A DNA stretch of 64,000 nucleotides from Candidatus Forterrea multitransposorum CG_2015-17_Forterrea_25_41 (GTDB lineage Archaea; Iainarchaeota; Iainarchaeia; Iainarchaeales; CSSED10-239): assembly GCA_009392915.1 (NCBI GenBank), contig CP045477.1, positions 96,001-160,000 on the forward strand. Direction: 5' to 3'. Positions within the stretch are counted from its first letter, which is position 1. Every line of letters begins with the position of its first letter. The position numbers were made by a program, and so were the translations under genes. The notes beneath the pieces are model-generated. The model made no database searches and was not told the DNA's origin. It saw nothing but the letters and a program-made list of their open reading frames with translations. Of this stretch, positions 36,792 to 58,476 are shown one piece after another.

Positions 36792-38186
36792 ATGAACAAA
36801 AATTTAACAAAATTATTTTTCTGGATATTTGGTATAATATTCAGTGGAATTTTTTATTTTTTCTCAAAAACATCTACTTCTTTATCATATATTAATGAAA
36901 TTAAGTTTCTTCCATACGTAATAATGTTAATAATTATTTTGTTATTTTTCTTAATTGGTATTTTATTTTCGAAAATACCTTTTTTTTGGTATTCAAAATT
37001 TAGAAAATCCAATCTTAATGAAGTTTTATCTGAAGTTGATGTAAAAAAAACTGAAGAAAATATTGATCAATTAATTGATAAATTAAAAGATGCTATAAAA
37101 AATATTAGTAAAAGTAATTATTCTCAAATATCTATAAATTATTTAATAAAGAATGTAGGTATTTCAAAAGAAAGTGCAGATGGAATTATTAAAAATATAA
37201 AGAGATTAAAAAGATTAAAAACTTTATCAATAGCTTTAGGAATTATAATTTCTTTAGGTTTATATTTTTTTGTAAGTAGTTTACCAGTATTTAATATTAT
37301 TCCAAATTATGTGTTTATAATATCTGCAGTAATTATTTTTCTTTTATTTGTTTTAGAAGGTTATTTAATTACAAGAATGCCTGATTCATTTTATTTAAAT
37401 TTAATTAATATAAATAAAGAAAAAATATTAGAAGTTAAAAGAGAATCTTTAGAAAAAGAAGAAAAGTTAAATAATTATAATCAAAAACAAAAAGGTTTGT
37501 TAGATAATATTCAAAAAGCAACTAAATTTCTTTTATCTCAAGATGTAAGTAAAGAAGCAATTTCTAATTTCTTTAGTAAATATGATGTTGATCAGTCTAC
37601 AATTTCAAAATTTATTGAACTTTCAGAAAAAGAATTAAATATTGAAAAGAATAATTCTGGAAAAGTTTTATTTAATGCAAAATCAGATTCTGCAATAAGA
37701 TTAACTCTTTCTAAAATACACGATAGTTTTGAACAAATTAATCAAATATATAATGAAGTTTCAAAACTTCAAAAAGAAGTAAGTGATATTTCTCAAAGAC
37801 AAGAAAAACTTGAAAAAATGTCAACTATTAGTGTTTCAAAAGAAGTTAAAAAACTTAAAAAAGAACCAATAATGTCAAACAAGTATAAGGATTTAAAAAA
37901 AGCAGATCCTAAAGAAATTAAAGAATTGTTAGATAAAAGAAATGAAGAATATGATAAACTTATAAGTTATTTATATCACTTGTTCTTACCATCTGTTGAA
38001 ACTTCTTCTCAAAATGATGTTTTTTCTACATTAGTTTATTATGGTTATCCTTATGAGATTGTAGAAGATGTTTTACAAAAGTTTAAAGATAAAAAAATTA
38101 ATTTCGGGAAAGATAAAAAAGTATCTTTCTCTGAAAAATTAGTAAATAAAATTAATGGTTTTTATGAATTATTTGCCTCTAAATAA
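36792..38186 (+). CDS. polytopic membrane protein with long coiled-coil (paralog A of unknown family)
   Basis: 464 aa; two TM hairpins (res ~5-60 and ~145-190) flank a soluble insert, followed by ~200 aa of predicted coiled-coil and a conserved C-terminal domain (VYYGYPYEIVEDVLQKF); paralogous to 49583-50956. Confidence 0.5.
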   Translation: MNKNLTKLFFWIFGIIFSGIFYFFSKTSTSLSYINEIKFLPYVIMLIIILLFFLIGILFSKIPFFWYSKFRKSNLNEVLSEVDVKKTEENIDQLIDKLKDAIKNISKSNYSQISINYLIKNVGISKESADGIIKNIKRLKRLKTLSIALGIIISLGLYFFVSSLPVFNIIPNYVFIISAVIIFLLFVLEGYLITRMPDSFYLNLININKEKILEVKRESLEKEEKLNNYNQKQKGLLDNIQKATKFLLSQDVSKEAISNFFSKYDVDQSTISKFIELSEKELNIEKNNSGKVLFNAKSDSAIRLTLSKIHDSFEQINQIYNEVSKLQKEVSDISQRQEKLEKMSTISVSKEVKKLKKEPIMSNKYKDLKKADPKEIKELLDKRNEEYDKLISYLYHLFLPSVETSSQNDVFSTLVYYGYPYEIVEDVLQKFKDKKINFGKDKKVSFSEKLVNKINGFYELFASK

Positions 38187-41538: not shown

Positions 41539-42879
41539 ATGAAAAACTTAACAACTGACGATATTGGTAAAATCATAGAAATCAAAAGAAAAGTAAATAA
41601 TCAAGAGATAACTCATAAAGGTTATTTAGTTGAAATCTTAAATGATTCTTTAAAAGTTAAGCTTTTAGATAATGGTTATAATATAAGTATTTTTTCAAAA
41701 GAAATTTCTTCTTTTTCTTTAGATGAGTCTAAAGTTTCTTTAGGAAAAGTTAATTCTAAAGACTTTAAAGAAAATTCTTCTCTTCCAAATATTGTATATA
41801 TTGGAACAGGTGGAACTATTGGAACACATGTTGATTATGTTACTGGTGGAGTTACAATGTCAAGAACTCCTCAAGAAATAATTTCTACAACACCTGAACT
41901 TGAAAATATAATTAATATTAAAAAAATAGAATCTCCTTTTAGAAAAGCATCAGAAGACATTTATTATAAAGATTGGCTTGTTTTATCTGAAGTTGTTTTT
42001 AAATATTTAAATGATCCTTCAATTGACGGAATAATTATAACTCATGGAACAGATACTTTATCTTTTACAGGGAGTGCACTTTCTTTTTTAATTGAAAACA
42101 TAAATAAACCTGTTCTTTTAGTTGGTGCTCAAAGATCTCCTGATAGAGCAAGTTTTGATGGATCTTTAAATCTTATTTGTGCAGCTCGTTTTGTAAAGGA
42201 AAAAATACCTGGTGTTTTTACTGTTATGCATGGTTCTATTAATGATGATTTTTGTTCAGTTATTAAAGCTGTTAAATCTAGAAAAATGCATACTTCTAGA
42301 AGAGATGCTTTTATTCCAGTAAATGATATTGTTTATGCAAAAGTTTTTTCTGATGGTAAAATAGATTTTTTAAAAAAAGAAATTTTTTCAAAAGATAAAA
42401 TTCCTTTATTAAATAAAGAATATGAAGAAAAAGTAGCACTTATAAAAATACATCCAAATATTGATCCTTCAATAATTGATTGGTATATTGAAAAAGGTTA
42501 TAAAGGAATTATTTTTGAAGGAACTGGTTTAGGTCATGTTCCAACTGCAGAAAATAATGATTCTATTCTTCCTTTAAAATATCAGTTTATACCTTATATT
42601 AAAAAAGCAATTGAATCTAAATTAATTGTAGTTATGTCTTCCCAATGTCTTTTTGGAAGAGTAAATAATAAAGTTTATTCTAACCTTAGATATCTTTCTC
42701 AAGCAGGTGTTGAATATTTAGATTCTCATGACATTTTACCAGAAGTTTTACAAATAAAACTTTCAGTTGCTTTAAAAAAATTTAAACCAAAAGAAGAAAT
42801 AATTAAATATCTTAAGACCAATATTTCTGGCGAAATAACTTCTAAAGAAGTTCCTTCTTTTTATGATGAAGTTTTATAA
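41539..42879 (+). CDS. gatD: glutamyl-tRNA(Gln) amidotransferase subunit D
   Basis: 446 aa; asparaginase-like domain IVYIGTGGTIGT...HGTDT; followed directly by gatE. Confidence 0.85.
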   Translation: MKNLTTDDIGKIIEIKRKVNNQEITHKGYLVEILNDSLKVKLLDNGYNISIFSKEISSFSLDESKVSLGKVNSKDFKENSSLPNIVYIGTGGTIGTHVDYVTGGVTMSRTPQEIISTTPELENIINIKKIESPFRKASEDIYYKDWLVLSEVVFKYLNDPSIDGIIITHGTDTLSFTGSALSFLIENINKPVLLVGAQRSPDRASFDGSLNLICAARFVKEKIPGVFTVMHGSINDDFCSVIKAVKSRKMHTSRRDAFIPVNDIVYAKVFSDGKIDFLKKEIFSKDKIPLLNKEYEEKVALIKIHPNIDPSIIDWYIEKGYKGIIFEGTGLGHVPTAENNDSILPLKYQFIPYIKKAIESKLIVVMSSQCLFGRVNNKVYSNLRYLSQAGVEYLDSHDILPEVLQIKLSVALKKFKPKEEIIKYLKTNISGEITSKEVPSFYDEVL

Positions 42880-42900
42880 TGTTTATTAATATGATTTATT

Positions 42901-44823
42901 ATGATTAAAATTGATATAAATAATTTAGATTATGAAAAACTAGGCCTTATGTGTGGTCTTGAATTACATCAACAGTTAAACACAAATAAACTTTTTTGTA
43001 ATTGTCCTTCAAAATTAATTAATGATGATTTAAAGCCAGATAAAGTAATCCATAGACAATTAAGAGCAGTTTCTTCAGAGACTGGAGATTTAGATGTTAC
43101 TGCAAAAGAAGAACAAGATAAAAATAAAATTTTTAAATATCTTTTTTATAATTCTTGTAATTGTTTAGTTGAAACAGATTCACAACCTCCTTTAAATATT
43201 AATAAAGATGCTTTAAATATTGCTTTAGTTGTTTCTTTTTTAACAAATTCAGTTGTTGTAAATACTTCTCATGTTATGAGAAAACAAGTAATTAATGGTT
43301 CTAATGTTTCTGGTTTTCAGAGAACTACAATGATTTCAACTGATGGTTATCTTGATTTTAGTTTTGGAAAAGTAAGAATTGATAAAATTCTTTTAGAAGA
43401 AGATGCTGCTAGAACAATTGAAAAAACTGATTCTATTGTAACTTATTCTTTAGATAGGCTTGGTATTCCTTTAATAGAATTAGTTGCATGGCATGATATG
43501 CACACTCCTGAACAAGTTAAAGAAGTTGCATTATATCTTGGACAAATGTTTCGAAGTACTGGTAAAACTAAAAGAGGTTTAGGTTCAATCAGACAAGACA
43601 TTAATATTTCTATTAAAGATGGTTCTAGAGTAGAGATTAAAGGTTGTCAAGATCTTGATTTAATTCCAGAGATTGTTAATAGAGAGATTGTTCGTCAATT
43701 AAATTTAATAGATATTAAAAAAGAAGTTATTGAAAAAAATCTTACTTCATTTTCTTTAAAACCTATTATGATTAATGATTATTTTAAGCAAACTGATTCT
43801 AAAGTTGTTTTAAAATCTTTTTCAGAAAATAAAAATGCTTATTTATTTTTACTTCCTGGATTTAAGGGTTTTTTAGGTAGAGAAATTCAACCAAACAGAA
43901 GACTTGGAACTGAAATTGCAAGTGTTTTAAAAATGAGAACTACTCTAAAAGGTCTTTTCCATTTAGATGAACTTCCAAATTATGGTATTACAGAAAAAGA
44001 AGTTAATTTAATTAAAAAAGATTTTTCTGTTAAAGAAAATGATTCCTTTATAATTATTTTTTCTTCTGAAAATGAAATTTCTTCAGTTAAAAATGTAATT
44101 GAAGATAGACTTAATAAACTTAAAGACGGGGTTTTAAAAGAAACTAGAGCTTCAACTGTTGAAGGAAATACAGAATATCAAAGACCTCTTTCAACTTCTT
44201 CAAGAATGTATCCTGAAACTGATCTTTCACCAATTGTTTTTAATGAAGAATTATTAGCTTTAGCTAAAAAAGAAGTTCCTTTATCTTTAGAAGATAGAAA
44301 AAAATTATATGTTGATACTTTTAAACTAAGTTCACAACTTGCAGATAAAATGAAACTTAATAATTTTGCACCAATTTTTGAAAAAATAGTTTCTGAATAT
44401 AAAATTAATCCTACAACTCTTTCAGTATTTTTACTTGAAGATTTAATTAAAGCTTCAAGAGAAGGAGTTTTAGATCTTGATGATGTTAATGATTCTTTAT
44501 TAATTAATTTTTTTAAAACAAAAGATTTGTTTAACAGAATTAATAAAAATAAACTTTTAGATGTCTTTATTGAATTTTTAAAAAATCCTCTTGATTTAGA
44601 AAGAATTATTCAAGAAAATAAAAAAGAGGATTTATCTTTTGATGTATTAACTAATATTATTGATCAAGTAATAGATGAAAATAAAGATTTTATTTTAAAA
44701 CAAAAAGAAAGATCTTTAGGTTTATTGATGGGAAGAGTAATGTCTAAAACTGAAAATAAATATGATGGGAAAATTATTTCTCAAACAATTAAAGAAAGAT
44801 TAAATCTTTTTTTAAAAAATTAA
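42901..44823 (+). CDS. gatE: glutamyl-tRNA(Gln) amidotransferase subunit E
   Basis: 640 aa; the GatB/GatE N-terminal LHQQLNT...CNC pattern and a C-terminal GatB/YqeY-like domain. Confidence 0.85.
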   Translation: MIKIDINNLDYEKLGLMCGLELHQQLNTNKLFCNCPSKLINDDLKPDKVIHRQLRAVSSETGDLDVTAKEEQDKNKIFKYLFYNSCNCLVETDSQPPLNINKDALNIALVVSFLTNSVVVNTSHVMRKQVINGSNVSGFQRTTMISTDGYLDFSFGKVRIDKILLEEDAARTIEKTDSIVTYSLDRLGIPLIELVAWHDMHTPEQVKEVALYLGQMFRSTGKTKRGLGSIRQDINISIKDGSRVEIKGCQDLDLIPEIVNREIVRQLNLIDIKKEVIEKNLTSFSLKPIMINDYFKQTDSKVVLKSFSENKNAYLFLLPGFKGFLGREIQPNRRLGTEIASVLKMRTTLKGLFHLDELPNYGITEKEVNLIKKDFSVKENDSFIIIFSSENEISSVKNVIEDRLNKLKDGVLKETRASTVEGNTEYQRPLSTSSRMYPETDLSPIVFNEELLALAKKEVPLSLEDRKKLYVDTFKLSSQLADKMKLNNFAPIFEKIVSEYKINPTTLSVFLLEDLIKASREGVLDLDDVNDSLLINFFKTKDLFNRINKNKLLDVFIEFLKNPLDLERIIQENKKEDLSFDVLTNIIDQVIDENKDFILKQKERSLGLLMGRVMSKTENKYDGKIISQTIKERLNLFLKN

Positions 44824-44838
44824 AAATGTGAATTATTT

Positions 44839-45348
44839 ATGGCTAAACATGATATTCTTTATGCTCCTTGGAGAAAAAAATATGTAACTTCAAATACTAA
44901 AAAAGAAAGTAAAAATCCTAAAACTTGTATTTTTTGTAAAGCTCCAAAAGAAGAGGTAATATTTTCAAGTAAAAAAATATTTCTTCAAGCAAATAAATAT
45001 CCTTATGGGGAAGGTCATCTTTTAGTAATTCCAAAAAGACATGTAAATCAAGTTATAGATCTAACTTCTAAAGAAAGAGAAGAATTATTTAATATGATTG
45101 ATCTTTCAGTTTATGCTTTAAATATTTTTATGAAACCTGAAGGTTATAATATTGGTTGTAGTATAGGTGATGTTGCTGGAGAAAGTATTAAACATTTGCA
45201 TTTTCATATCTTACCAAGATATAAAGGAGATGTTGCATGGTCAAGACTTTGTGATTTTGAAGTTGTTTCATTATCTCCAAATGAATTAGCTATTAGTCTT
45301 AAAGAAATTATTGAAAAAAATAAACTTGCAAAAAAATTTAATCTTTAA
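44839..45348 (+). CDS. HIT (HINT-like) family nucleotide hydrolase
   Basis: N-terminal CIFC, HLLVIPKRH, and the histidine triad HLHFHILPR. Confidence 0.75.
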   Translation: MAKHDILYAPWRKKYVTSNTKKESKNPKTCIFCKAPKEEVIFSSKKIFLQANKYPYGEGHLLVIPKRHVNQVIDLTSKEREELFNMIDLSVYALNIFMKPEGYNIGCSIGDVAGESIKHLHFHILPRYKGDVAWSRLCDFEVVSLSPNELAISLKEIIEKNKLAKKFNL

Positions 45349-45475
45349 GTAAAATAGTTTGTTTTTTTATCTTTTTTTAAGTTTTTCTAAGGTTTATATG
45401 TAACCATTAGTTTTTAAATATATTTATACATTATATATATAAATTTTATATTTATGCTTTTTTGGTGATTAAGAT

Positions 45476-45961
45476 ATGTTTAAACTATTTAAGAAGACAA
45501 GAGTTACAGAAGTTGTTGAAATTGATGAGTCTACTATTTCTGAAATTAAAAGACCTAAAGTTGTTCAAGTAGAACAAAAGAACTATAGAGTTAAATCTAT
45601 TGATTGGTTAGAACAACATTATATAGTTGTTTCAGAAGTTGCATCTGGTAAAAAAACTGGTGCAAGACAACAAGGAAAATTTACTTTTGAAGGAAGACAG
45701 ATCTATAAGGATGATGTTACAAGAAAACTTTATAGTGATCTTTTAGATAATTATAGTTATTATGCTATGACTGTTAAAAGATATATTGTTGTTAGAAAAG
45801 AACTTGAGATTATTGATAAACAAAAAGATGAAGAATACTTAATTGCAGGTAGAGCGAAAGAATTTAATTTAGAAGCTTCAAGACTTGAGAATGCATTAAA
45901 TGTTTATCTAACAAATATTAATGTTATTAAAAATAAGATTAAGGATTATTTATATTCTTAA
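45476..45961 (+). CDS. hypothetical protein
   Basis: 161 aa soluble ORF, no recognisable motif, good coding periodicity. Confidence 0.4.
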   Translation: MFKLFKKTRVTEVVEIDESTISEIKRPKVVQVEQKNYRVKSIDWLEQHYIVVSEVASGKKTGARQQGKFTFEGRQIYKDDVTRKLYSDLLDNYSYYAMTVKRYIVVRKELEIIDKQKDEEYLIAGRAKEFNLEASRLENALNVYLTNINVIKNKIKDYLYS

Positions 45962-46008
45962 ATCTTTTTTCTATTTTCTTATAAAATTAGTTTTTTTTAA
46001 AAAATATT

Positions 46009-46203
46009 TTAAATCATTCCTTTTGCCATACCTTTGGTTGATCTTAAACATTTTTTATGCCAATACTGTCCACCCCATTTTTTATCACAACCTTTTTGGT
46101 TGCAAAGGGCGCATGTTTCATCAGGATATTTAGATTTTGAGAAATCTATTCTTTTTTCATTATCTTCTTTATTTTCTTTTTTTTTAAATAATCCAAATAC
46201 CAT
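46009..46203 (-). CDS. small Cys/His-rich (zinc-binding?) basic protein
   Basis: 64 aa; CALCNQKGCDKKW...HKKC; chosen over two overlapping low-complexity plus-strand ORFs; no clear SD. Confidence 0.3.
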   Translation of the reverse strand: MVFGLFKKKENKEDNEKRIDFSKSKYPDETCALCNQKGCDKKWGGQYWHKKCLRSTKGMAKGMI

Positions 46204-46238
46204 TTTTTTTCACAATTAGTTTTTTTTTAAAAAATTAT

Positions 46239-46310
46239 AGTCCGGAGGAGATTCGAACTCCTGTCGCCAGGTTCAAAGCCTGACATGCTTGGCCACTACA
46301 CTACCGGACT
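46239..46310 (-). tRNA. tRNA-Gln (anticodon UUG)
   Basis: minus strand AGTCCGG-TA-GTGT-AGTGGCCAA-GCAT-G-TCAGG-CTTTGAA-CCTGG-CGAC-AGGAG-TTCGAAT-CTCCT-CCGGACT; clean cloverleaf; no CCA encoded. Confidence 0.85.
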
Positions 46311-46443
46311 ATTTTATTTAGCAAAGAAATATTTTCTTTTCTATTAATATCTAAAAAAGGAAGGGTTTTTATTTCTTTATTAAGTTAAATATTTAATAAT
46401 AGAAATATTTTTATATACTATTCTTTATAAATTAATATATAAA

Positions 46444-46518
46444 GGGAGTGTAGCTTAGTCTGGTTGGAGCACTCGACTGATAATCGAGAGGCCGCAGGTT
46501 CGAATCCTGCCATTCCCA
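46444..46518 (+). tRNA. tRNA-Ile (anticodon GAU)
   Basis: GGGAGTG-TA-GCTT-AGTCTGGTTG-GAGC-A-CTCGA-CTGATAA-TCGAG-AGGCC-GCAGG-TTCGAAT-CCTGC-CATTCCC-A; no CCA encoded. Confidence 0.85.
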
Positions 46519-46853: not shown

Positions 46854-47267
46854 ATGAGTGAAGTTGAAAAACAAATAAATGATCAAGAAGTTTTAGAAAA
46901 AAAAGAAGAAGCTTTAGTTGATGATGAAGATGAAGCTTTAGAAGAAGATGATGAAAAACTTCCTTTCCCTAATGCTAGAGTTGTAAGACTTATGAGAGAA
47001 AGTTTAGATCAAAATAAACAAATCAAATCTGTTGTTAAAAAAGAAATGAATATTTTCTTAGGAAGAATAGTTGAAACTATTTGTAAGAAAATGAACGAAT
47101 TTGATTATAGTTATGTTGATTATGGTATGTTTAAGCAAGCAATAGAAACTTTTGAAAATATTCAAACAATTGAACTTGAAAAAATAAGAATCATAAAAGC
47201 TTTAGAAAAAATAAAAGCAGATTGTGATGTCTTAGTAAATGATGTTGAAAGAAAATTCCATGAATAG
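46854..47267 (+). CDS. histone-fold protein (CBF/NF-Y / archaeal histone superfamily) with acidic N-terminal tail
   Basis: 137 aa; acidic N-terminal 35 residues, then LPFPNARVVRLMRES...IKSVVKKEMNIFLGRIVETICKK, which resembles the alpha1-L1-alpha2 of NF-YC/NC2-type histone folds (LPLARIKKIMK...). Confidence 0.5.
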   Translation: MSEVEKQINDQEVLEKKEEALVDDEDEALEEDDEKLPFPNARVVRLMRESLDQNKQIKSVVKKEMNIFLGRIVETICKKMNEFDYSYVDYGMFKQAIETFENIQTIELEKIRIIKALEKIKADCDVLVNDVERKFHE

Positions 47268-47348: not shown

Positions 47349-48980
47349 GTGATTTTTATGACTGATTCTCAAACACAAAATAACGCCATGTTTGGTGAAG
47401 GAACTAGACGTGAGAGGGGCAAAGATGCTCAAAAAATAAACATACTTGTTGCAAAAGCAGTTGCTAATGCGGTAAAGTCTACTTTAGGTCCAAGAGGGAT
47501 GGACAAGATGCTTGTTGATGAACTTGGAGATGTAACTATTAGTAATGATGGTGCTACAATTTTAAAAGAAATGTCAATAGAACACCCTATAGGTAAGATG
47601 TTTGTTGAACTTGCAAAAACACAAGATGATGAAGTTGGAGATGGTACTACTTCAAGTGTTATTATTGCAGGTGAGTTAGTTTCTAAAGCTGAAAACTTAC
47701 TTGATGAAAATATACATTCTTCAATAATTATTAGAGGATATAAAATGGCTTCTGAGAAAGCAATTTCTTTTTATCAAGAAATTTCAGAAGATATTTCTTT
47801 AAGTGATAAAGATCTTTTATTAAATATTGCAAAAACTTCAATGACAGGAAAAGCTTCAGACTATAGTGATTATCTTTCAAAAGCTGTTGTTGATTCTATA
47901 TTGATGATTTTAAATGAAACAAATTATAAAGAAATTGATAGAGATAAAATAAGACTTGAAAAAAAGATTGGATCTTCAATTTCTGAAACAAAAATAATTG
48001 ATGGTATTGTTCTTGATAAAGAGATTGTGCATCCTGAAATGCCAAAATCTTTAGAAAATTGTAAAGTTGCAATTTTAAATACTGCTCTTGAGATTAGAGA
48101 ACCTGAAAATGATACTAAAATACAAATCAATTCTCCTGAACAACTTCAAATGTTTATTGAACAAGAAGAAAGTCAATTAAGAAAAATGGTTGATAAATTA
48201 ATTGAAACTAAAACAAATATTGTTTTTTGTCAAAAAGGAATTGATGATCTTGCAGAACATTATCTTTCAAAAGCTGGTATTTCTGCAATTAAAAGAGTTA
48301 AACAATCAGATATTGAAATTTTAGCAAAATCTTCAGGCGCAAAGATTATTACAAGAATAAATGATATGTCACAAGAAGATTTAGGTTTCTTTGGAAAAGT
48401 TTATGAAAAGAGAATTTCTGGAGAAAATATGTTGTTTATTGAAAATCCTAAACAAAAAGGAATTGTTACAATTCTTTTAAGAGGTTCTTCAGAACAAGTT
48501 TTATCTGAAACAGAAAGAACAATTACAGATGCTATTGGTGCTGTACTTTCTTCACTTAGATCAGGAAAATATGTTTCTGGTGGGGGTTCTTGTGAAATTG
48601 AAGTTTCTTTAAGACTTAAAAACTATGCTAAAACAATTGGAGGAAGAGAACAACTTGCAATTGAAGCATTTGCAGATGTTTTAGAATCTATTCCTAAAAT
48701 TTTAGCTGAAAGTTCTGGACTTGATGCAATTGATACTTTAGTTTCTTTAAGAAGTATACATCAAGATATAAATAATAAAAGTTATGGGGTAGATGTAATT
48801 AATAGTAAAATAGAAGATATGAAAAAATTACATGTTATTGAACCATTAAACCTTAAAACCCAAATTATTAATTCTTCTTTTGAAGTAGTTGAAATGATTC
48901 TTAGAATAGATGATATTATTGCAGCTTCTTCAAAGAATAAAGGGCAAGGTTTTCAAGGAATGCCAAATAATTTAATGTAG
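47349..48980 (+). CDS. ths: thermosome subunit (group II chaperonin)
   Basis: 543 aa; [21 protein letters not shown] and the equatorial/apical domain pattern; SD AAGGTGA; coordinates taken from the ORF track. Confidence 0.85.
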
Positions 48981-49076: not shown

Positions 49077-49415
49077 ATGAAAGTAAAAGATATAAAACCT
49101 TTCCAAAAAAAAATAAGTCTTTTATGTAAAGTAATTTCAAAGACTGAAATAAGAAAAGTAGTTTCAAGATTAGATGAAATTGAACATAAAGTTTGTGAAG
49201 CTTTAATTGGTGATGATACTGGTGTTGTTTATCTTACTTTATGGGATTTATCTATAGAAAATTTACAAGAAGGTAAGGTTTATTCTTTTGAAAATCTTTA
49301 TTCTTCAGAGTTTAAAAAATCTTTAAGACTTAATCTTGGAAGATTTGGAGAATTTAAAGAAGTTTCTCAAGAAATTGAAGTAAACAAAGAAAATAATCTT
49401 TCAAAAGAAGTTTAA
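49077..49415 (+). CDS. single OB-fold ssDNA-binding (RPA/SSB-like) protein
   Basis: 112 aa; KISLLCKVIS...ALIGDDTGVVYLTLWD matches the RPA-type OB-fold signature (IGDETGxIRLTLW). Confidence 0.55.
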   Translation: MKVKDIKPFQKKISLLCKVISKTEIRKVVSRLDEIEHKVCEALIGDDTGVVYLTLWDLSIENLQEGKVYSFENLYSSEFKKSLRLNLGRFGEFKEVSQEIEVNKENNLSKEV

Positions 49416-49450
49416 TTTTTTTCTTTTTAAAAAAGTATTATTATTATTTT

Positions 49451-49525
49451 GGAAGTGTAGCTTAGTCTGGTTAGAGCATTGGTCTTATACACCAAAGGTC
49501 GCAGGTTCGAATCCTGCCATTTCCA
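49451..49525 (+). tRNA. tRNA-Ile (anticodon UAU)
   Basis: GGAAGTG-TA-GCTT-AGTCTGGTTA-GAGC-A-TTGGT-CTTATAC-ACCAA-AGGTC-GCAGG-TTCGAAT-CCTGC-CATTTCC-A; the anticodon loop reads C-U-U-A-U-A-C; near-identical backbone to tRNA-Ile(GAU). Confidence 0.75.
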
Positions 49526-49582
49526 CTTTTTTTTAAAAATAAAGCTTTATAAATCTAATTAACTACTATATATTAGATAATT

Positions 49583-50956
49583 ATGGGTTATTCTTTTAAA
49601 AAAGAAAGTAGATTATTTTTTTGGATATTAAGTATTTTACTTTCTTCATTAATATTTTCTATATTATATTTCTTCCAAGTGTTTGGAAGTTCTCAAAATA
49701 ATTCTCTTTCATTTATCTTTTCATTAATTATTTTAATTGTTTTATTTATTGTTGGTATGTTTAATTATAAACTTACAACAAAGCTATATGGTTTTATTTC
49801 TTCACAAAGAGATTTATCTAAACTTATAAGTAGAATTAATCTAGATGATTCTGAAGAAAATATTCAAAAAATGATTAGTAGATTTAAAGAAGTTTTTTAT
49901 AATCTTGATCTTTCAGATAAAGAAGGTTCAATTTTAATTATTAGAAAAACTGTTGGCTTAGATTCTGATGCTGCTTTCAAAGTATATAAGATTCTAAAAA
50001 ATATTAGTTTTACAAAAAATGTTTTAACTATTTCTGGTTTTTTAATATCTGTAATTGTTTATTTTATAATTACAAAAATTAATTTTTTTAATATTATTAC
50101 TGAAACTAAGTTTTTCCCACTTGCAATTTCTTTATTATTATTTTTTATATTTTTATTTGAAAGTAGATTGTCTTCTAAAATACCTTCTAGTTTTTATATT
50201 AACCTTGTAATTATTAATAAAAAAGCATTAACAAATAGTAAAAAGGATGTAATTGATAGTGAAAATCAATTAAATAATATTTTTAAAAAAAGAGATGAAA
50301 TTAGAGAAAAAATAAAAGATATTGTTTTTAATTTAACAAAACAAGGTTTTAAAAAAAAAGATGTTGTTGAAATAATTAATTCTAGAAAAAAAGATTCTTA
50401 TGGTCTAAAAGATTTAATTATGCAATCAAATGAAGATTTTAATTCAGAAGCAAAAAAAGCTTCTTTTAAAGATGTTTCTTTAGATATTGAGAATATTTTA
50501 AAATTTTATGAAGATGTTAAAAATAAAGAAAAAGAAGTGCTTTCTTTAAAAGAGAAAATAAACCAAATTAGAGAAATTCAAGAAACTGTTGAAAAAATAA
50601 ATTCTAATGATTGGGATTATTATAAAAATATTAAATTTAATTTAAATAAATCTAAAGAATTTGAAAGAAACATAACTGATGAAATTTCAAGTAAATTACA
50701 TCATAGATCTGAACTTAAGGAAGATAAAGAAGTTATAATTAAAAATTTATATAATTTATTCATAAATTATAAAGACTCAATTACAAAAGATCAAGTTTAT
50801 TCTTTTTTAATTTCTAAAGGTTATTGTTATGAAACTATTATGGATCTTTTTGATGAATTTAAGAAAAATAATATTGATTTAACTAAAAATAAAAAAACTT
50901 TTCAAGACAAAATTATTTCAAAGATTAATAATGTTTATGAAAGTTTTAAAGATTAG
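49583..50956 (+). CDS. polytopic membrane protein with long coiled-coil (paralog B)
   Basis: 457 aa; same architecture as 36792-38186 (2 TM, insert, 2 TM, PSSFYINLVIINKK, coiled-coil, C-terminal VYSFLISKGYCYETIMDLFDEF). Confidence 0.5.
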   Translation: MGYSFKKESRLFFWILSILLSSLIFSILYFFQVFGSSQNNSLSFIFSLIILIVLFIVGMFNYKLTTKLYGFISSQRDLSKLISRINLDDSEENIQKMISRFKEVFYNLDLSDKEGSILIIRKTVGLDSDAAFKVYKILKNISFTKNVLTISGFLISVIVYFIITKINFFNIITETKFFPLAISLLLFFIFLFESRLSSKIPSSFYINLVIINKKALTNSKKDVIDSENQLNNIFKKRDEIREKIKDIVFNLTKQGFKKKDVVEIINSRKKDSYGLKDLIMQSNEDFNSEAKKASFKDVSLDIENILKFYEDVKNKEKEVLSLKEKINQIREIQETVEKINSNDWDYYKNIKFNLNKSKEFERNITDEISSKLHHRSELKEDKEVIIKNLYNLFINYKDSITKDQVYSFLISKGYCYETIMDLFDEFKKNNIDLTKNKKTFQDKIISKINNVYESFKD

Positions 50957-51061
50957 TTTTTAGATAAATTTAAAAATCTGTTTATAAATATAATAAATAA
51001 AAGAGATATATTTAAATTTAAAAGAGATAATAAAAATAGATAATAAAAGAGATAATAAAAC

Positions 51062-52408
51062 ATGATTGAACCAAACACATTTTTTTTAATATTTTCAGCA
51101 ATTTTTTTAATTGCTTTTTTTGGAAATCTTTTTTTTAAAAAGACAAGATTTTCAGATATTTCTATTCTTTTAATCATCGGTTTTTTAATTGGTTCTGTGT
51201 TTAACATTATTACCAATTCTCAACTTGAAATTTTAAAAAGTATGTCTTCTTTATTTGGTTCTTTAGCTTTAATTATTATTCTTTTTGAAGGTGGACTTCA
51301 TCTTAATTTTTATAAAGTTTTAAGAGAGATTGGAAAAGCTACAATGTTTACAATTGCAGTTTTCTTTTTTACAGTTCTTTTCTCTGGAGTTTTACTTCAT
51401 TATATTTTTTCAATACCTGCAATTTATGCACTTTTAATTGGTTCTGCAATTGGAGGTGTAAGTTCTGCTGTGGTAATTCCTTTAGTTATGAACTCTAAAT
51501 CTAAAGAAGAAACTAAAACTTTAATTACTTTAGAGTCTGCAATTACTGATGTTTTGTGTATTATTGTCTTTATAACTCTTTTTGAAATAATTGTGACTCA
51601 AAAATCAAGTATTCAGTTTGTTACTCAAAATATAATTTCTGCATTTGCAATTGCAACTGTTATAGGTGCAGTTTCAGGAATTGTTTGGACAAAGGTTTTA
51701 AGAGATTTTAATGTTATTAGAAAATTTAATTATCTTTTAACTCTTTCTTTTTTATTTTTAATTTATGTTTTAATTGAATATGCAAAAGGAAATGGAGCTT
51801 TTGGAGTTTTAATCTTTGGTTTAGTTTTAGGTAATTCTAATGAAATTTTAAAAATATTTAAAATGAAAACTTTAAGTCTTGATAATGTTGTTAGTTTAAA
51901 TGAAGTTTATAAGTTTCAAGCAGAAATTAGTTTATTTATTAAAGCATTTTTCTTTATTTATTTAGGACTTATAATTGATCTTTCTTCTGTAACTTTAAAT
52001 ATTATTTTAATTTCTGCAGTTTTAATTTTTGTATCAATTGCTTCTAGGTATTTATCCATTTATATATTTTCTGGAGATAAGACAATTAAGCAAGATACAA
52101 GATATATTTTATCTCTTCATGCAAGAGGACTTGCTGCTGCTGTTTTAGGTACTTATCCAATTGCTATGGGTCTTGTAAACAATTATACTTTAATCCTTTT
52201 ACCAATAACTTTCCTTGTAATCTTTTTAACAAATATTACAACTACTTTTATGTTTTTCTTTACAGAAAGAAATAAACTTAAGGAAGAGTCTTTAAATGAA
52301 GAATCTTCAGAAAAAGATTCTTCTCAGGAAGAAGAAACTAATCCTTATAGTTTAATTAAAAAATCTAATAAAAATAAAGATTCTAAAGAAAAAATAGATG
52401 ATAATTAA
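51062..52408 (+). CDS. cation:proton antiporter (NhaP/CPA1-type Na+/H+ exchanger)
   Basis: 448 aa; ~12 TM helices; LFEGGLHL and IGGVSSAVVIP segments typical of CPA1; acidic C-terminal tail. Confidence 0.6.
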   Translation: MIEPNTFFLIFSAIFLIAFFGNLFFKKTRFSDISILLIIGFLIGSVFNIITNSQLEILKSMSSLFGSLALIIILFEGGLHLNFYKVLREIGKATMFTIAVFFFTVLFSGVLLHYIFSIPAIYALLIGSAIGGVSSAVVIPLVMNSKSKEETKTLITLESAITDVLCIIVFITLFEIIVTQKSSIQFVTQNIISAFAIATVIGAVSGIVWTKVLRDFNVIRKFNYLLTLSFLFLIYVLIEYAKGNGAFGVLIFGLVLGNSNEILKIFKMKTLSLDNVVSLNEVYKFQAEISLFIKAFFFIYLGLIIDLSSVTLNIILISAVLIFVSIASRYLSIYIFSGDKTIKQDTRYILSLHARGLAAAVLGTYPIAMGLVNNYTLILLPITFLVIFLTNITTTFMFFFTERNKLKEESLNEESSEKDSSQEEETNPYSLIKKSNKNKDSKEKIDDN

Positions 52409-52602: not shown

Positions 52603-55443
52603 ATGTTTTCAAATCAAAATGAAAAAGAAATAAAAGAGTTTTGGGAAAAAAATAATATTCCTAAAAAAGTAAGAGAAAAAGAGTCTGATAAACATTATTA
52701 TTTTATAGACGGACCTCCATATGCAACAGGTTCTATTCATTTAGGAACTGCAATGAACAGGATCTTAAAAGATATTCTTTATAGGTTTAAAAGACAAGAA
52801 GGTTTTAAGGTTTTAGACATTCCTGGTTTTGATACTCATGGTGTGCCAATAGAACGTAAGGTGCAAAAAAAATATGATTTAAAATCAAAAGAAGATATTG
52901 AAGCTTTTGGTATTGAAAAATTTTCAAAAGAATGTCATGCATTTGCAACTAAACACATCTCTGAAATGTCAAAAGATATTTATGATTTAGGACAATGGAT
53001 GGATTGGGAAAATCCATATAGAACTTTAGATCAAACCTATATGCAATCTGCTTGGTGGACTTTTAAAAAAGCTTTTGATAAAGGTCTTTTATTTCATGAC
53101 AAATATCCTATCCATGTCTGTCCTGATTGTGAAACTTCAGTTTCTTTTAATGAAATTGAATATCAAGATTTAACTGATCTTTCAATTTTTGTTTCCTTAC
53201 AATCAAAAGAAGATTCTTCTCTTTTCTTTGTTATTTGGACAACAACTCCATGGACTCTACCTGCAAACATGGCAATCATGGTTCACCCTAAATATACATA
53301 TGTTGAGCTTATCTCAAACAATAAAAAATATATTGTTGCAAAAGATTTATCTGAAAAATTAATAAAAGAATTTAATTTTGAAAACTATACTTTAGGTAAA
53401 GAATATTTAGGAGAAGAACTTGTAGGTAAAGAATATCTTCCTGTTCTAGGAGAATGGTTAAATCTTCCTGAAGATTATACAAAAAATGCATATAAAATAA
53501 TCTCTTCAGCAAGACATGTAAACCTAGAAGACGGTTCTGGTTTAGTTCATTGTGCTCCAGGACATGGTAAAGAAGATTATCAAGTTGGAAGAGAATTTAA
53601 TATTCCTATATTTTCTCCGGTTACAATGTCAGGTGAGTATGATGATTCTGTTTCTTTTGGAAAAGGAAAAAAAGTTAAAGAACTTGATTTAGATATAATG
53701 AAATATTTACATGAAAAAGAATGTATCTTAGCTAAAAGAAAAGTAAAACATAGTTACCCTACATGTTGGAGATGTCATAATCCTTTAATAATGGTATCTT
53801 TACCTCAGTGGTTTTTAAGAATTGAAGATTTAAAACCAAGACTTGTAGAACTTAATGAAAGTGAAGTTTCTTGGCATCCTTCTTGGGGAAAAGATAGATT
53901 TTCAAACTGGCTTAAAAATTTATCTGATTGGCCAATTTCAAGAGCAAGATATTGGGGAACTCCTGTTCCTATTTGGAAATGTGATAACTGTGAAAAAATA
54001 CATGTCTTTGAGTCTTTAGAAGATTTAAAGAAAAAAGCTCCTGAAGTAGATTTAAATATGGATATTCATAAACCATTTATTGACAAAATAGAAATTACTT
54101 GTGATTGTGGAACAAAGGTGAAAAGAATTCCAGAAGTATTTGATGTTTGGTTTGATTCTGGTGTTGCATCATGGGCATCTTTAGGTTATCCTTTCAAAAA
54201 AGAATTATTTGATAAATATTGGCCAGCAGATGCTAATTTAGAAGGTCCTGATCAAATAAGAGGTTGGTGGAATTCTCAAATAATTGCTTCTGTAATTGCT
54301 TTTGATAAAGTTCCATTTAAACAAATTTCTATGCATGGTATGGTTCTTGCTGGAGATAAAAGAAAGCTTTCTAAATCTGAAGGAAATGATATTCCTTTAA
54401 TTGAAAGATTTTCACAAACTTCAATTGATTACTATAGATATTATTTTGCAAAAGAATTTTCAGGAGAAGACATTGTTTTAGATTCTAAAAAATTTGATGA
54501 AGTTAGAAGAACTTTAAATCTTTTAGAAAATCTTTATAATTTCATTTCTCTTTATGATGAAAAACAAACATTTGTAACTTCTTTAGATGTTTCAAAAGAA
54601 ACTTTACTTGTTGAAGATAAATGGATTCTTTCAAGATTTAATAATCTTTTAAAAAATAGTTATGCAAACTTTTCAACAACTAACTATTCAAAAGTTATAA
54701 ATGATTTTGAAAAATTTTTGCTTGAAGATTTTAGTAGAATATATGTTAAACTTTTAAGAAAAAGAAAAGATGAAAATCATGTTCTTTCATATGTCTTTTC
54801 CTCAAGTTTAATATTGATCTCACCAATAGTTCCTCATTTTACAGAATTCATGTATCAAAAGTTTTCTGTAAAAGAAAAAGAATCTGTGCATTTCTACCAT
54901 AATCCTTTAATCAATGAAAGTTTAATTGATTTAGATCTTGAAAAGAACTTTGACCTTTCTCAAGAAGTTGTAAAAACAGCTCTTTCTTTAAGAGAGGACT
55001 TAAAGAAAAGATTAAGATGGATCTTACCTGAAATGCATGTTGTTTTAAAAGACTTTGAAAAAATATCTATCTTTAAGGAAATTATAGAAGATATGGCAAA
55101 TATTGAAAATGTAAGTTTTTCAAATAATGCTCCTGATAACATGCCTTCAAAAGAAGTTTTAAAAGATGTTTTTGTATACATTAATGAAAACATTGATTCT
55201 TCTTATAAAGAAGTTTGGGAAGTATCAGAGCTTACAAGGCTTATACAGTCTGAGAGAAAGAAACAAAAGTTAAATCCAAATGATAAAGTTTCTTTGAAGA
55301 TATCTTGTAGTGAAAAAGATTTCCTTGTAAAAAATAAACCTAAAATTGAAGATGCAACAAACACTATTCTTGATATCTTGGACGATTTAAGTGAAGACAA
55401 TAAACAAAAGTTAATAGAGAGAGAAGTTTCTTTCTCTTTTTAA
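52603..55443 (+). CDS. ileS: isoleucyl-tRNA synthetase (compact, 946 aa)
   Basis: PPYATGSIHLGTAMN (HIGH region), GFDTHGVPIE, KLSKSEGN (KMSKS); CP1 editing and zinc-binding CxxC pairs; IleRS-like rather than ValRS by the xDTHGxPIE motif. Confidence 0.7.
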   Translation: MFSNQNEKEIKEFWEKNNIPKKVREKESDKHYYFIDGPPYATGSIHLGTAMNRILKDILYRFKRQEGFKVLDIPGFDTHGVPIERKVQKKYDLKSKEDIEAFGIEKFSKECHAFATKHISEMSKDIYDLGQWMDWENPYRTLDQTYMQSAWWTFKKAFDKGLLFHDKYPIHVCPDCETSVSFNEIEYQDLTDLSIFVSLQSKEDSSLFFVIWTTTPWTLPANMAIMVHPKYTYVELISNNKKYIVAKDLSEKLIKEFNFENYTLGKEYLGEELVGKEYLPVLGEWLNLPEDYTKNAYKIISSARHVNLEDGSGLVHCAPGHGKEDYQVGREFNIPIFSPVTMSGEYDDSVSFGKGKKVKELDLDIMKYLHEKECILAKRKVKHSYPTCWRCHNPLIMVSLPQWFLRIEDLKPRLVELNESEVSWHPSWGKDRFSNWLKNLSDWPISRARYWGTPVPIWKCDNCEKIHVFESLEDLKKKAPEVDLNMDIHKPFIDKIEITCDCGTKVKRIPEVFDVWFDSGVASWASLGYPFKKELFDKYWPADANLEGPDQIRGWWNSQIIASVIAFDKVPFKQISMHGMVLAGDKRKLSKSEGNDIPLIERFSQTSIDYYRYYFAKEFSGEDIVLDSKKFDEVRRTLNLLENLYNFISLYDEKQTFVTSLDVSKETLLVEDKWILSRFNNLLKNSYANFSTTNYSKVINDFEKFLLEDFSRIYVKLLRKRKDENHVLSYVFSSSLILISPIVPHFTEFMYQKFSVKEKESVHFYHNPLINESLIDLDLEKNFDLSQEVVKTALSLREDLKKRLRWILPEMHVVLKDFEKISIFKEIIEDMANIENVSFSNNAPDNMPSKEVLKDVFVYINENIDSSYKEVWEVSELTRLIQSERKKQKLNPNDKVSLKISCSEKDFLVKNKPKIEDATNTILDILDDLSEDNKQKLIEREVSFSF

Positions 55444-55461
55444 TTTTTTAAGTGATATTTT

Positions 55462-55647
55462 ATGAAATTAATTATAGATTCTAAATTAGATATATCTTTA
55501 AAAGAATGGTCTGAAGGAAAAAAATCTTTAGGAGATGTTTCTAAAGAAAATAATTTATCTATATGTCAAACAATGGAAGAAGCTAAAAAAAGAGGTCTTT
55601 CTTCAAGCATATCTTTAGAAGATATAAAAGATGATTTCAACTTATAA
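55462..55647 (+). CDS. small hypothetical protein
   Basis: 61 aa ORF directly after ileS; no SD; weak. Confidence 0.2.
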   Translation: MKLIIDSKLDISLKEWSEGKKSLGDVSKENNLSICQTMEEAKKRGLSSSISLEDIKDDFNL

Positions 55648-55743
55648 AGGTTATTTATAGTTTTTTCTTATATTTTATTTTTAATAATCTTTTTTTAAAT
55701 TAATTTTTATAATTAATAAATATCTTTAAAAGGTTATTTTCAA

Positions 55744-55762
55744 TTCCTTTATAAATATTTTG
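55744..55762 (+). promoter_or_regulatory. candidate promoter TTCCTTTATAAATATTTTG upstream of asnS
   Basis: identical 19-mer to 52416-52434, with the same downstream AATATTTATG (+24) and AATACTTT (+42) boxes. Confidence 0.4.
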
Positions 55763-55982
55763 CTTCTTATTAATATTTATGTATTTCAAAATACTTTTAT
55801 CAAAAACAAGATTTTTACAAATCTACTTATTTTCTGTAGTTAACTTTAATCTCCTTTAGAGGGAGAGAATTTAATATTTATCGGTTTATATAATATTTAT
55901 AGTACTTTATTAAAATAAAGTCTAAACATATTTATAGTAATTTTTAAAAAAAATATATTTATAAAAAAGGAGTTAATAATTT

Positions 55983-57287
55983 ATGGAAAAAAAATATTTA
56001 TCAATAAAAGAAGTTTTAGAAAAGAAAGAAGGAGAGGTATCTTTAAGAGGATGGGTACACAGGTTTAGAGACCAAAAGACAACAATCTTTATAACCTTAA
56101 GAGATGTTACAGGGGTAATACAACTTGTGTGTGATCAAGATAAAGTATCTCCAGAGCTTTTTGAAAAAATAAAACAAACAACTATAGAATCATCAATAGT
56201 TGTTTCTGGAACTGTAAGAAAAGAAGAAAGATCTCCTCAAGGTTATGAAATTGATATAAAAGATTATGAGATTGCAGGTCTTGCAGAAACTTATCCAATA
56301 TCAAAAGATTTTTCTGAAGAATTTCTTTTAGATGTAAGACACTTATGGTTAAGATCAAGAAAAATGCAAGCAATCTTAAAAATAAGATCAACTGTCTTTA
56401 GAGCTATTCATGATTATTTTAGAAGTCAAGATTATTATGAATATCAATCTCCAGTTCTTCAGTCAGTTCAATGTGAAGGAGGATCAAGTTTATTTAAGGT
56501 TGATTACTTTGAAAAGAAAGGTGTCTTTTTAGCACAGACATGGCAATTGTATGCAGAGCCAGCTATCTTTTCTTTAGAAAGAATATATACAATCTCTCCA
56601 TCTTTTAGAGCGGAAAAGTCAAAGACAACAAGACATTTAGCTGAATATTGGCATGCAGAGATGGAAGGAGCTTGGGTTTCTTTTGAAGAGTTACAAGAGC
56701 ATGCAGAAGGTTTAATAAAAAAAGTAATCTCTGATGTTTTAAAACACCATAGAGATGATCTTGAAACTTTAAAGAGAGATGTTAAAGTTTTAGAAACTGC
56801 AATTTCAAAACCTTTTGTAAAAATGACATACACCGAAGCTTTAGAGATTTTAAAAAAAGAGCATGACATGCATGTTGAATGGGGAAAAGACCTAAGAACT
56901 GTTGAAGAGGATCTTTTATCTAAAATGTATGATACTTTTATTATTATTACAAGATATCCAAAAGAAGTAAAAGCTTTTTATATGAAAGAAGATCCACAAG
57001 ACCCTAGAGTAGTTTTAGGTTTTGATTGTATCGGTCCTGAAGGTTATGGTGAGATTATAGGTGCAAGTGAAAGAGAGGATGATATTAAAAAAATAGTTGA
57101 AAGACTTGAAAAAGACGGAGAAGATGTCTCACAATATGATTTCTATCTTGACACTAGAAAATATGGTTCTGTCCCTCATTCTGGTTTTGGAATGGGTGTT
57201 GAAAGAATAATCTCTTATATCATAAAAGCTGATACAATAAAGGATGCTATTGCTTTCCCTAGAACAATGGTAAGGTATAGACCTTAA
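55983..57287 (+). CDS. asnS: asparaginyl-tRNA synthetase (class IIb)
   Basis: 434 aa; N-terminal OB anticodon-binding domain; FRAEKSKTTRHLAEYWHAEMEGAW (motif 2), GFGMGVERI (motif 3); the C-terminal FPRT matches AsnRS rather than AspRS (FPRD). Confidence 0.6.
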   Translation: MEKKYLSIKEVLEKKEGEVSLRGWVHRFRDQKTTIFITLRDVTGVIQLVCDQDKVSPELFEKIKQTTIESSIVVSGTVRKEERSPQGYEIDIKDYEIAGLAETYPISKDFSEEFLLDVRHLWLRSRKMQAILKIRSTVFRAIHDYFRSQDYYEYQSPVLQSVQCEGGSSLFKVDYFEKKGVFLAQTWQLYAEPAIFSLERIYTISPSFRAEKSKTTRHLAEYWHAEMEGAWVSFEELQEHAEGLIKKVISDVLKHHRDDLETLKRDVKVLETAISKPFVKMTYTEALEILKKEHDMHVEWGKDLRTVEEDLLSKMYDTFIIITRYPKEVKAFYMKEDPQDPRVVLGFDCIGPEGYGEIIGASEREDDIKKIVERLEKDGEDVSQYDFYLDTRKYGSVPHSGFGMGVERIISYIIKADTIKDAIAFPRTMVRYRP

Positions 57288-57595
57288 TTTTTTAAAAGAT
57301 AAAAGTATTATACTTTTTATAATACTTTTTCTTATATTATTTTAGATAATTTTATTTTGGGAATATATGATTAAAAATAAATCTAAGATTGTTTTAGAAG
57401 TAATTAAAGAAGTTGAAAAATTAAAAAAACAAAAGATTAAACCAATGTCAAAGAATGATTTAAATGATTTCTTTGAAAATGCTAAAAATTAATTTTTTAT
57501 ATTTAAATATTTTTTATATTCAATTTATTTGTCTAATTTTGTTTTTGTAATACAAATAGATTGTTTTTTAAACTTTTTGTATTACATAAATATAT

Positions 57596-58099
57596 ATGTT
57601 AAATAATAAAGTTAATGCTGTAATTGACTCTTCATTTTGGATAAACTTGAGTAGAGTTGATCTTACAAAATATTTATTAGATTATTTTACTATTTATTCT
57701 ACCATAAAAGTAAAAGAAGAACTTTTTGATTTTTACGAAAGAAGAGGTTATTTTTCAAAAGATTCTTATCTTTTTAAGTTATATTTAGAAGCAGATTTTA
57801 TTATTTTAAAAGACCTTAAAGAAATTACTTTAAAAATAAAGCAAGAATTGTCAAAAGATTCTGGAGAGTTATATTCTGCTGCTCTTTTAAAGGAAATTGG
57901 AGGTGTTTTTTTAACAGATGATAAGGGGGCACTTAATTTTTGCAAAAATAATAATCTTTTTGCAATTACTTCTGTTTATTTAATAGTTAGACTTTATAAG
58001 GATAATTTAATATCAAAAGAAAAAGCTAAATTTTCAATTATGCGATTAAAAGGAAAAATAAGTAATATACATATACAATCTGCTTTAAAGGATTTATAG
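57596..58099 (+). CDS. PIN-like nuclease domain protein (DUF3368-like toxin candidate)
   Basis: 167 aa; N-terminal AVIDSSFWINL acidic PIN start; internal TDDKGAL. Confidence 0.4.
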   Translation: MLNNKVNAVIDSSFWINLSRVDLTKYLLDYFTIYSTIKVKEELFDFYERRGYFSKDSYLFKLYLEADFIILKDLKEITLKIKQELSKDSGELYSAALLKEIGGVFLTDDKGALNFCKNNNLFAITSVYLIVRLYKDNLISKEKAKFSIMRLKGKISNIHIQSALKDL

Positions 58100-58119
58100 T
58101 ATAAAAGGAGGTTTTTAAC

Positions 58120-58476
58120 ATGGTTAAAAAAGATTATAAATTGAAATCTTATAGATTATCTGATAGTTCCTTAAAATTAATATATAATGTTTCTAAAGAA
58201 AAAGATTTGAGTGAATCTGAAGCTTTAAGAATGTTAGTTGACAAAGGGCTTTATGAATATAAGTTAGAGTCAGCAATAAAAACATATTATGATAAAAATT
58301 TAGATTTAACTGCTGGAGCAAAACTTGCTGGTATTTCCAAAAGAGAGTTTATGGAAGAACTTTCAAGAAAAGGGGAAGGTATTAATCTTTCAAAAGAAGA
58401 TTATGATTATTCTAAAAAATCTTTTGAAAAATTATTTGGAAAAACAAAAAAGAAAACTACTCAAAAGCCCAAGTAG
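58120..58476 (+). CDS. UPF0175-like HTH antitoxin candidate
   Basis: 118 aa; LDLTAGAKLAGISKREFMEELSRKG resembles the UPF0175 HTH (ISLGKAAELAGMSRWEF...); SD AAGGAGG. Confidence 0.45.
   Translation: MVKKDYKLKSYRLSDSSLKLIYNVSKEKDLSESEALRMLVDKGLYEYKLESAIKTYYDKNLDLTAGAKLAGISKREFMEELSRKGEGINLSKEDYDYSKKSFEKLFGKTKKKTTQKPK

Follow-up and report, generated by a model that had tools for sequence, protein, structure and literature searches.

The tRNA-Ile(UAU) gene

A tRNA-Ile gene with the genomic anticodon TAT (UAU) lies at positions 49451-49525 (75 nt, + strand) of the window, the whole 64-kb stretch of DNA that was analysed. It was detected both by ARAGORN (tRNA-Ile(tat) at 49451-49526, + strand) and by Rfam (RF00005 against 49451-49525: 75.5 bits, E = 9.7e-15, model positions 1-71 of 71; the gathering score of the family is 29). 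The two programs thereby agree with the first-pass annotation, which had placed a tRNA-Ile with a UAU anticodon here, alongside a tRNA-Ile(GAU). ARAGORN found four tRNA genes in the window, among which tRNA-Ile(UAU) has the highest Rfam score. The others are tRNA-Ile(GAU) (46444-46518, + strand; to 46519 in ARAGORN; 72.9 bits in Rfam), tRNA-Gln(CTG) (27802-27874, - strand) and tRNA-Gln(TTG) (46237-46311, - strand). A permissive Rfam scan of the window retrieved no tRNA-like match beyond these four.

All 21 stem pairs of tRNA-Ile(UAU), as read from the sequence, are standard (7 in the acceptor stem, 4 in the D stem, 5 in the anticodon stem and 5 in the T stem), with G5-U68 and U13-G22 counted among them. 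The loop of the anticodon arm has 7 nt, C32 U33 U34 A35 U36 A37 C38 (CUUAUAC). The gene ends with the discriminator, A73, and no CCA is encoded at its 3' end. The 75-nt match to the tRNA model is continuous, and there is no intron in the gene, at position 37/38 or elsewhere. Position 34 is T in the window and in the relative L071 (a GTDB representative, Candidatus Iainarchaeum sp.), and not the C that is the substrate of TiaS. A motif made from the tRNA had a single match in the window, and 100 shuffles gave none. The thermodynamic fold missed the exact D arm of the cloverleaf, and the base composition around the gene was as in the remaining window.

A run of eight T (T8; 49527-49534, + strand), one base past the 3' end of the tRNA and kept in L071, is likely to be its archaeal transcription stop signal. 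About 16-27 nt upstream of the gene, the A/T-rich stretch TTTTTAAAAAAG (49424-49435, + strand) might conceivably be a TATA-like promoter element, and it looks like background at 24% GC.

The host and its AUA codons

The GC content of the window ranges from 21 to 29% and is ~24% overall. The window encodes the archaeal markers GatD, GatE, a thermosome subunit and the ribosomal proteins S6e, S24e and L7Ae, together with aIF2-gamma, aIF5B and an Rpb7-like RNA polymerase subunit. Three aminoacyl-tRNA synthetases (IleRS, AsnRS and CysRS) are also encoded. Iainarchaeota, formerly Diapherotrites, is a DPANN lineage. The first-pass annotation had called the genome very AT-rich, and this holds: the host belongs to the DPANN archaea, and its genome is small, with ~24% GC. 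It is probably Candidatus Forterrea multitransposorum from Crystal Geyser or a very close relative, which a chitobiase-like gene and the one-directional GC skew fit; the main text of the paper on that archaeon contains no discussion of isoleucine decoding (PMC5905446).

ATA was counted 549 times in 51 non-overlapping ORFs of the window (54.5 kb), that is, 30.3 per 1000 codons and 31.5% of the Ile codons, and about twice as often as ATG in the same ORFs. It made up 27% of the Ile codons in 13 translation, chaperone and synthetase genes. AUA usage, a check that the first-pass annotation had proposed, shows a major codon at ~24% GC. Between the window and L071, 231 of the 1855 compared codons differed. 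ATA was involved in 18 of these differences, of which 16 were exchanges with ATT or ATC, one was with TTA and one with GTT; there was no ATA-ATG exchange among the 1855 codons. AUA thus behaves as an ordinary frequent Ile codon, one for which an efficient reader is needed. Reassignment of AUA was considered and rejected on the same exchanges.

Comparison with tRNA-Ile(GAU) and with counterparts in other genomes

The tRNA-Ile(GAU) gene, the partner that reads AUU and AUC, lies 2.9 kb upstream of tRNA-Ile(UAU). Aligned over 76 positions, the two tRNAs agree at 64. Outside the anticodon arm the identity reaches 54 of 58 positions, including the discriminator A73, so the earlier description of a backbone nearly identical to that of tRNA-Ile(GAU) was correct; within the anticodon arm it is 9 of 17. 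Outside the arm, the differences consist of one compensatory pair (3:70), one D-loop base and one variable-loop base. Those within it comprise the wobble base, position 38 and four anticodon-stem pairs, which are changed with pairing kept.

The tRNA-Ile(UAU) is identical in L071 at all 75 positions, as are two further tRNAs (75/75 each), while nearby intergenic DNA is 80-95% identical and the window and L071 share 94.9% identity over 7 kb. The gene thus appears to be under selection.

GTDB was scanned with a pattern made of the D arm, the CTTATA loop and the T arm, which proved less archaea-specific than intended. At least 120 loci matched (L002-L121, for example L021, L047, L067, L069 and L083), at least 14 of archaeal type and at least 106 bacterial; these counts are lower bounds and not frequencies. 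Four of the archaeal-type loci listed are Iainarchaeum, and ARAGORN called tRNA-Ile(tat) in all 14 archaeal loci listed. The bacterial matches listed (at least 106) belong mostly to Saccharibacteria and other Patescibacteria/CPR, with high-GC Chloroflexia in addition. About half of the bacterial tRNA(UAU) loci listed carry C38. One archaeal-type locus, L063 (DAOWAC010000059.1, 1427-4604), is labelled Chloroflexota but is probably a mis-binned DPANN contig: its GC content is 35%, its tRNA-Ile(UAU) is of archaeal style, and its IleRS shares 43% identity with that of the window.

The 14 archaeal UAU tRNAs were aligned together with both Ile tRNAs of the window. In this alignment 98.7% of the cells are standard pairs and 11 of the 21 pairs have changed on both sides. 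The covariation score was reached by none of 500 shuffles, and pairing dropped to 28-46% when the partner columns were slid. A pseudogene, which the first-pass annotation had named as one of the findings that would undo its proposal, is ruled out by these compensatory changes and by the pairing in the counterparts; the score of 75.5 bits and the intact stems agree.

U31 is present in all 14 archaeal UAU genes listed and C38 in 11 of them. We can only speculate that the U31/C32/C38 context limits pairing of U34 with G. The anticodon arm of the window tRNA matches those of other DPANN UAU tRNAs at 13-17 of 17 positions in 9 of 13 loci (17 in L034 and L063) and at 9-12 of 17 in the remaining four (L009, L061, L087 and L106). 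For the rest of the tRNA the identity to these counterparts is 41-47 of 58, against the 54 of 58 (and 9 of 17 in the arm) found for tRNA-Ile(GAU) of its own genome. The window tRNA is a mosaic, with an anticodon arm resembling that of the clade and a body resembling that of the GAU tRNA.

Gene order around tRNA-Ile(UAU)

Directly upstream of tRNA-Ile(UAU) lies a gene for a small OB-fold single-stranded-DNA-binding protein (SSB; 49077-49415, + strand; Pfam OB_Ssb-like), whose matches to the NCBIfam families SSB and RPA fell short of the cut-offs; an SSB gene has the same place in L034 and L038. It is preceded by a gene named 'thermosome subunit' in the source (47358-48980, + strand; Pfam Cpn60_TCP1), and a thermosome gene adjoins the UAU tRNA in L034, L057, L061, L087 and L100. 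Downstream, at 52603-55443 (+ strand), an intact ileS encodes an isoleucyl-tRNA synthetase of 946 aa, which scored 763.7 bits against NCBIfam TIGR00392 (cut-off 621.4) and also matched IleRS entries in the PDB. This IleRS is expected to charge both Ile tRNAs.

Two genes (49583-52408, + strand) separate the tRNA from ileS in the window and in L071: one encodes a 457-aa protein (49583-50956) with no Pfam or NCBIfam family match, and the other a Na+/H+ exchanger (Pfam Na_H_Exchanger). Both are absent from the tRNA-ileS gaps of L034, L038, L044, L048, L063, L081 and L100. When the window proteins were compared with the archaeal loci by tblastn, 8 of the 14 loci listed (L034, L038, L044, L048, L057, L063, L081 and L100) had ileS as the next gene after the UAU tRNA and on its strand, with gaps of ~20 to 860 nt and with IleRS proteins 32-53% identical to that of the window. 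The link was seen in none of the 106 bacterial loci listed. The block thermosome-SSB-tRNA-Ile(UAU)-ileS is conserved across divergent DPANN genomes.

The mosaic tRNA and the gene order common to distant genomes argue that the UAU gene is old in the clade and did not arise recently by copying of tRNA-Ile(GAU). Its likeness to tRNA-Ile(GAU) is no evidence of a recent local origin, because the anticodon arm and the position beside ileS are common to distant DPANN genomes. The likeness is better explained if the bodies of both Ile tRNAs evolve together within each genome.

Searches for tiaS and tRNA-Ile2(CAU)

The TiaS of A. fulgidus, used as the query, agrees with PDB 4RVZ chain Z at every one of 420 residues. 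In the 64-kb window tblastn returned nothing below E = 5. The TiaS Pfam domains (PF08489, PF22641 and PF23783) were detected neither in the ~50 window ORFs scanned nor among the Pfam labels of the 10-kb flanks on either side, and no CAU tRNA was present in the window or in these flanks. These searches cover ~84 kb of the ~840-kb genome (~10%).

JGI metagenomes were scanned for a CAU tRNA with the D and T arms of tRNA-Ile(UAU). The 15 matches all came from high-GC archaea (loci of 42-69% GC) and none from an AT-rich genome or from the source sample; the scan could not pick up a CAU tRNA whose body differs. As the matches were confined to high-GC archaea, the scan is a weak negative. Against a protein database, the best 120 of the 6639 matches to A. 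fulgidus TiaS were all from Archaeoglobi, which is uninformative on this genome. A literature search returned nothing relevant on DPANN archaea with TiaS, nor on CPR bacteria with tilS.

Proposed role of tRNA-Ile(UAU) and alternative explanations

Reading AUA as isoleucine without reading AUG is among the classic problems of the genetic code, one that the domains of life have solved in different ways. We consider it probable that the gene described here is an old one that encodes a functional AUA-reading Ile tRNA of an Iainarchaeota DPANN archaeon, most likely replacing tRNA-Ile2(CAU) and TiaS. The replacement itself is likely, with ~10% of the genome checked. The tRNA would be transcribed independently, with transcription stopping at the T8 run. 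No splicing is required, the intron being absent, and CCA would be added after transcription, as none is encoded. Charging would fall to the IleRS encoded 3 kb downstream, since tRNA-Ile(UAU) nearly equals tRNA-Ile(GAU) in acceptor stem, D arm, T arm and discriminator, and since its gene is linked to ileS in relatives. Judging from the anticodon, U34 would pair with the A of AUA, leaving AUU and AUC to tRNA-Ile(GAU). Position 37 of the Ile tRNAs presumably carries t6A, and a Kae1/TsaD gene lies nearby. In this way tRNA-Ile(UAU) would take the place of tRNA-Ile2(CAU) and of TiaS, the agmatidine synthetase, as described for Nanoarchaeum, Korarchaeum and ARMAN. Misreading of AUG might be avoided through U34 itself, whether modified or left unmodified, through the U31/C32/C38 context of the arm, through the ribosome or through competition from Met-tRNA.

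This strategy is already known, also within DPANN, from several precedents. N. equitans and K. cryptofilum have tRNA-Ile(UAU) and no tRNA-Ile2(CAU) (PMC6000648, PMC8450103), and tRNAscan-SE 2.0 names their UAU tRNAs tRNA-Ile3(UAU) (PMC8450103). As in these two archaea, the window gene carries a genomic UAU on an Ile-type body, which most likely stands in for tRNA-Ile2(CAU) and TiaS here as it does there; like the UAU tRNA of Korarchaeum, it has its closest relative in the GAU tRNA encoded by its own genome (PMC6000648). However, the UAU gene of Korarchaeum has an intron and the window gene has none. In Nanoarchaeum and Korarchaeum the absence of tiaS and the CAU tRNA comes from complete genomes, whereas here it comes from ~84 kb, and the present host is an AT-rich mesophilic member of Iainarchaeota in which AUA is a major codon. 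For ARMAN-2, -4 and -5, which are likewise small-genome DPANN archaea (Micrarchaeota, Parvarchaeota), a 2011 report describes tRNA-Ile(UAU) without tRNA-Ile(CAU) or TiaS homologues (PMC3239211). They differ from the present host in phylum, ARMAN-2 has a 25-nt intron at position 37/38 that the window gene lacks, and the account of these tRNAs mentions no linkage to ileS (PMC3239211). The statement in the first-pass annotation that a UAU anticodon is known only from a few archaea such as Nanoarchaeum and Korarchaeum is therefore outdated, given ARMAN in 2011 and at least 14 archaeal species in GTDB. The GTDB matches listed suggest that in ultrasmall archaea and bacteria the UAU solution is the common case rather than an exception. 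This locus leaves the present view of AUA decoding unchanged; it adds an AT-rich lineage with AUA as 3% of its codons to the small set of archaea that apparently use a plain UAU.

Mycoplasma mobile provides the best functional model, because it is the only such system with a mechanism worked out. Its tRNA-Ile2(UAU) reads AUA in an AT-rich reduced genome that lacks the C34-modifying enzyme; U34 is unmodified, IleRS is adapted via Arg865, and its own ribosome prevents misreading of AUG (PMC3575796). Its IleRS is, however, of bacterial type, and Arg865/Trp905 (in the Zn-binding domain) have no established counterpart in the archaeal/eukaryotic-type enzyme of the window. In eukaryotes a genomic UAU also reads AUA in the cytoplasm beside a second Ile tRNA, and the IleRS of the window resembles the eukaryotic/archaeal type, with cytoplasmic IleRS among its PDB matches. 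The eukaryotic tRNA-Ile(UAU) genes bear introns, unlike the window gene, and the tRNA has pseudouridine at positions 34 and 36 (PMC3895270). The canonical archaeal tRNA-Ile2(CAU) with agmatidine accomplishes the same task of reading AUA and not AUG, but it has C34 and depends on TiaS, whereas the window gene has T at 34 and no tiaS was found nearby.

Were tiaS and tRNA-Ile2(CAU) encoded elsewhere in the genome, tRNA-Ile(UAU) would be a redundant reader that adds capacity for the frequent AUA codon. Such redundancy can exist, since tilS coexists with a tRNA-Ile(UAU) gene in some bacteria (PMC3575796), and the portion searched here amounts to ~10% of the genome. It is nevertheless quite improbable in this host: the archaea with tRNA-Ile(UAU) described in PMC6000648, PMC8450103 and PMC3239211 have neither TiaS nor tRNA-Ile(CAU), the ~84 kb contain no tiaS and no CAU tRNA, the JGI metagenome scan revealed no CAU sibling with this backbone, and the host genome is strongly reduced (PMC5905446). 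It is unlikely, too, that the U34 tRNA reads AUU or AUG to a meaningful extent besides AUA, with some misincorporation of Ile for Met being tolerated and no specific fidelity mechanism. That idea draws on haloarchaea, in which IleRS charges U34 mutants poorly and the mutants, carrying cnm5U, bind AUA > AUG > AUU (PMC3895270), and on the misreading of AUG by the M. mobile tRNA-Ile(UAU) on E. coli ribosomes (PMC3575796). Because of the poor charging and the binding to AUG, efficient and accurate use of UAU needs adaptations. The M. mobile tRNA reads only AUA on its own ribosome (PMC3575796), and the conservation of U31, C32 and C38 in the archaeal genes hints at tuning. The 1855 compared codons contain no ATA-ATG exchange; like the arm context, this is no direct test of decoding.

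As to the origin of the gene, a recent duplication of tRNA-Ile(GAU), which lies 2.9 kb upstream, followed by a change of G34 to U as proposed for the UAU tRNA of K. cryptofilum (PMC6000648), would account for the 54 of 58 identical positions outside the anticodon arm and for the closeness of the two genes. We give this origin little credence. Compensatory stem changes set the anticodon arm apart from that of the GAU tRNA, with 8 of 17 positions differing. The arm is identical (17/17) to those of the UAU tRNAs of L034 and L063, two genomes in which IleRS shares no more than 43-49% identity with that of the window. The place beside SSB, thermosome and ileS is common to those distant genomes, and the likeness of the bodies is better explained by both Ile tRNAs evolving together in one genome. 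There is practically no chance that the gene is a pseudogene, or the cargo of a mobile element or virus without a role in host translation. Nothing specific favours this beyond the many transposons reported for the host genome (PMC5905446). The gene has the top tRNA score of the window and perfect stems, is 100% conserved amid diverged flanks, shows compensatory changes in its counterparts, and sits inside a conserved housekeeping block with a base composition like that of the window; on its score, its conservation in L071, the covariation and the block, both the pseudogene and the mobile-element readings were rejected.

A functional tRNA-Ile(UAU) in place of tRNA-Ile2(CAU) and TiaS is thus the reading we prefer. 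The gene order is new here, and the linkage of the tRNA to ileS and the anticodon-arm signature (invariant U31, C32 and mostly C38) are modest new leads. Taken jointly, they tentatively raise the possibility, doubtful as it still is, that a broad DPANN clade has an ancient tRNA-Ile(UAU)-ileS module in which the synthetase and the anticodon arm coevolved for AUA reading independent of TiaS. With gaps down to ~20 nt, the tRNA and ileS may be co-transcribed in some genomes. If this were true, direct UAU decoding would be the ancestral state of the clade and not a scattered late loss, and the frequent C38 in CPR tRNA(UAU) genes would be a convergent structural solution. The adjacency of tRNA and ileS offers a concrete pair for biochemistry on the acceptance of U34 by IleRS and on fidelity against AUG.

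Other features of the window

GatD and GatE, the archaeal Glu-tRNA-Gln amidotransferase, adjoin tRNA-Gln(UUG) (41539-46311), and tRNA-Gln(CUG) lies 18 kb upstream. An AsnRS gene is present (55983-57287), and the indirect route is therefore apparently used for Gln alone. The IleRS, AsnRS and CysRS genes lie within 7.3 kb (52603-59905). Between AsnRS and CysRS, a DUF3368 (PIN-like)/UPF0175 pair (57596-58476) resembles a toxin-antitoxin module.

A gene of the Kae1/TsaD family (t6A37 synthesis; L138 16354-17343), which bears on A37 of both Ile tRNAs, lies ~2.5 kb past the 3' end of the window and is followed by genes for PTH2 (peptidyl-tRNA hydrolase) and the Hjc resolvase.

GC skew was positive in 15 of 16 bins of 4 kb and 44 of the 51 ORFs were on the + strand, which places the window on one replication arm and shows a strong bias of its genes towards one strand. 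The skew fits the bacterial-like, one-directional GC skew that PMC5905446 reports for Ca. Forterrea.

Two large proteins look extracellular. One (4724-7531) has chitobiase/hexosaminidase C-terminal and InlB B-repeat domains, and the other (22381-25959; 1192 aa) has an Ig-like domain. Both would fit the cell-surface proteins described for a presumed host-dependent lifestyle.

Besides the 457-aa ORF at 49583-50956, no Pfam family was matched by the ORFs at 60142-62544 (800 aa), 36792-38186 (464 aa), 29567-31015 (482 aa) and 46854-47267 (137 aa); the 800-, 457- and 137-aa ORFs had no NCBIfam family either. The N-terminal third of the 137-aa protein (46854-47267) is strongly acidic. Proteins of the window occur in dozens of JGI metagenome samples, including 3300007985.
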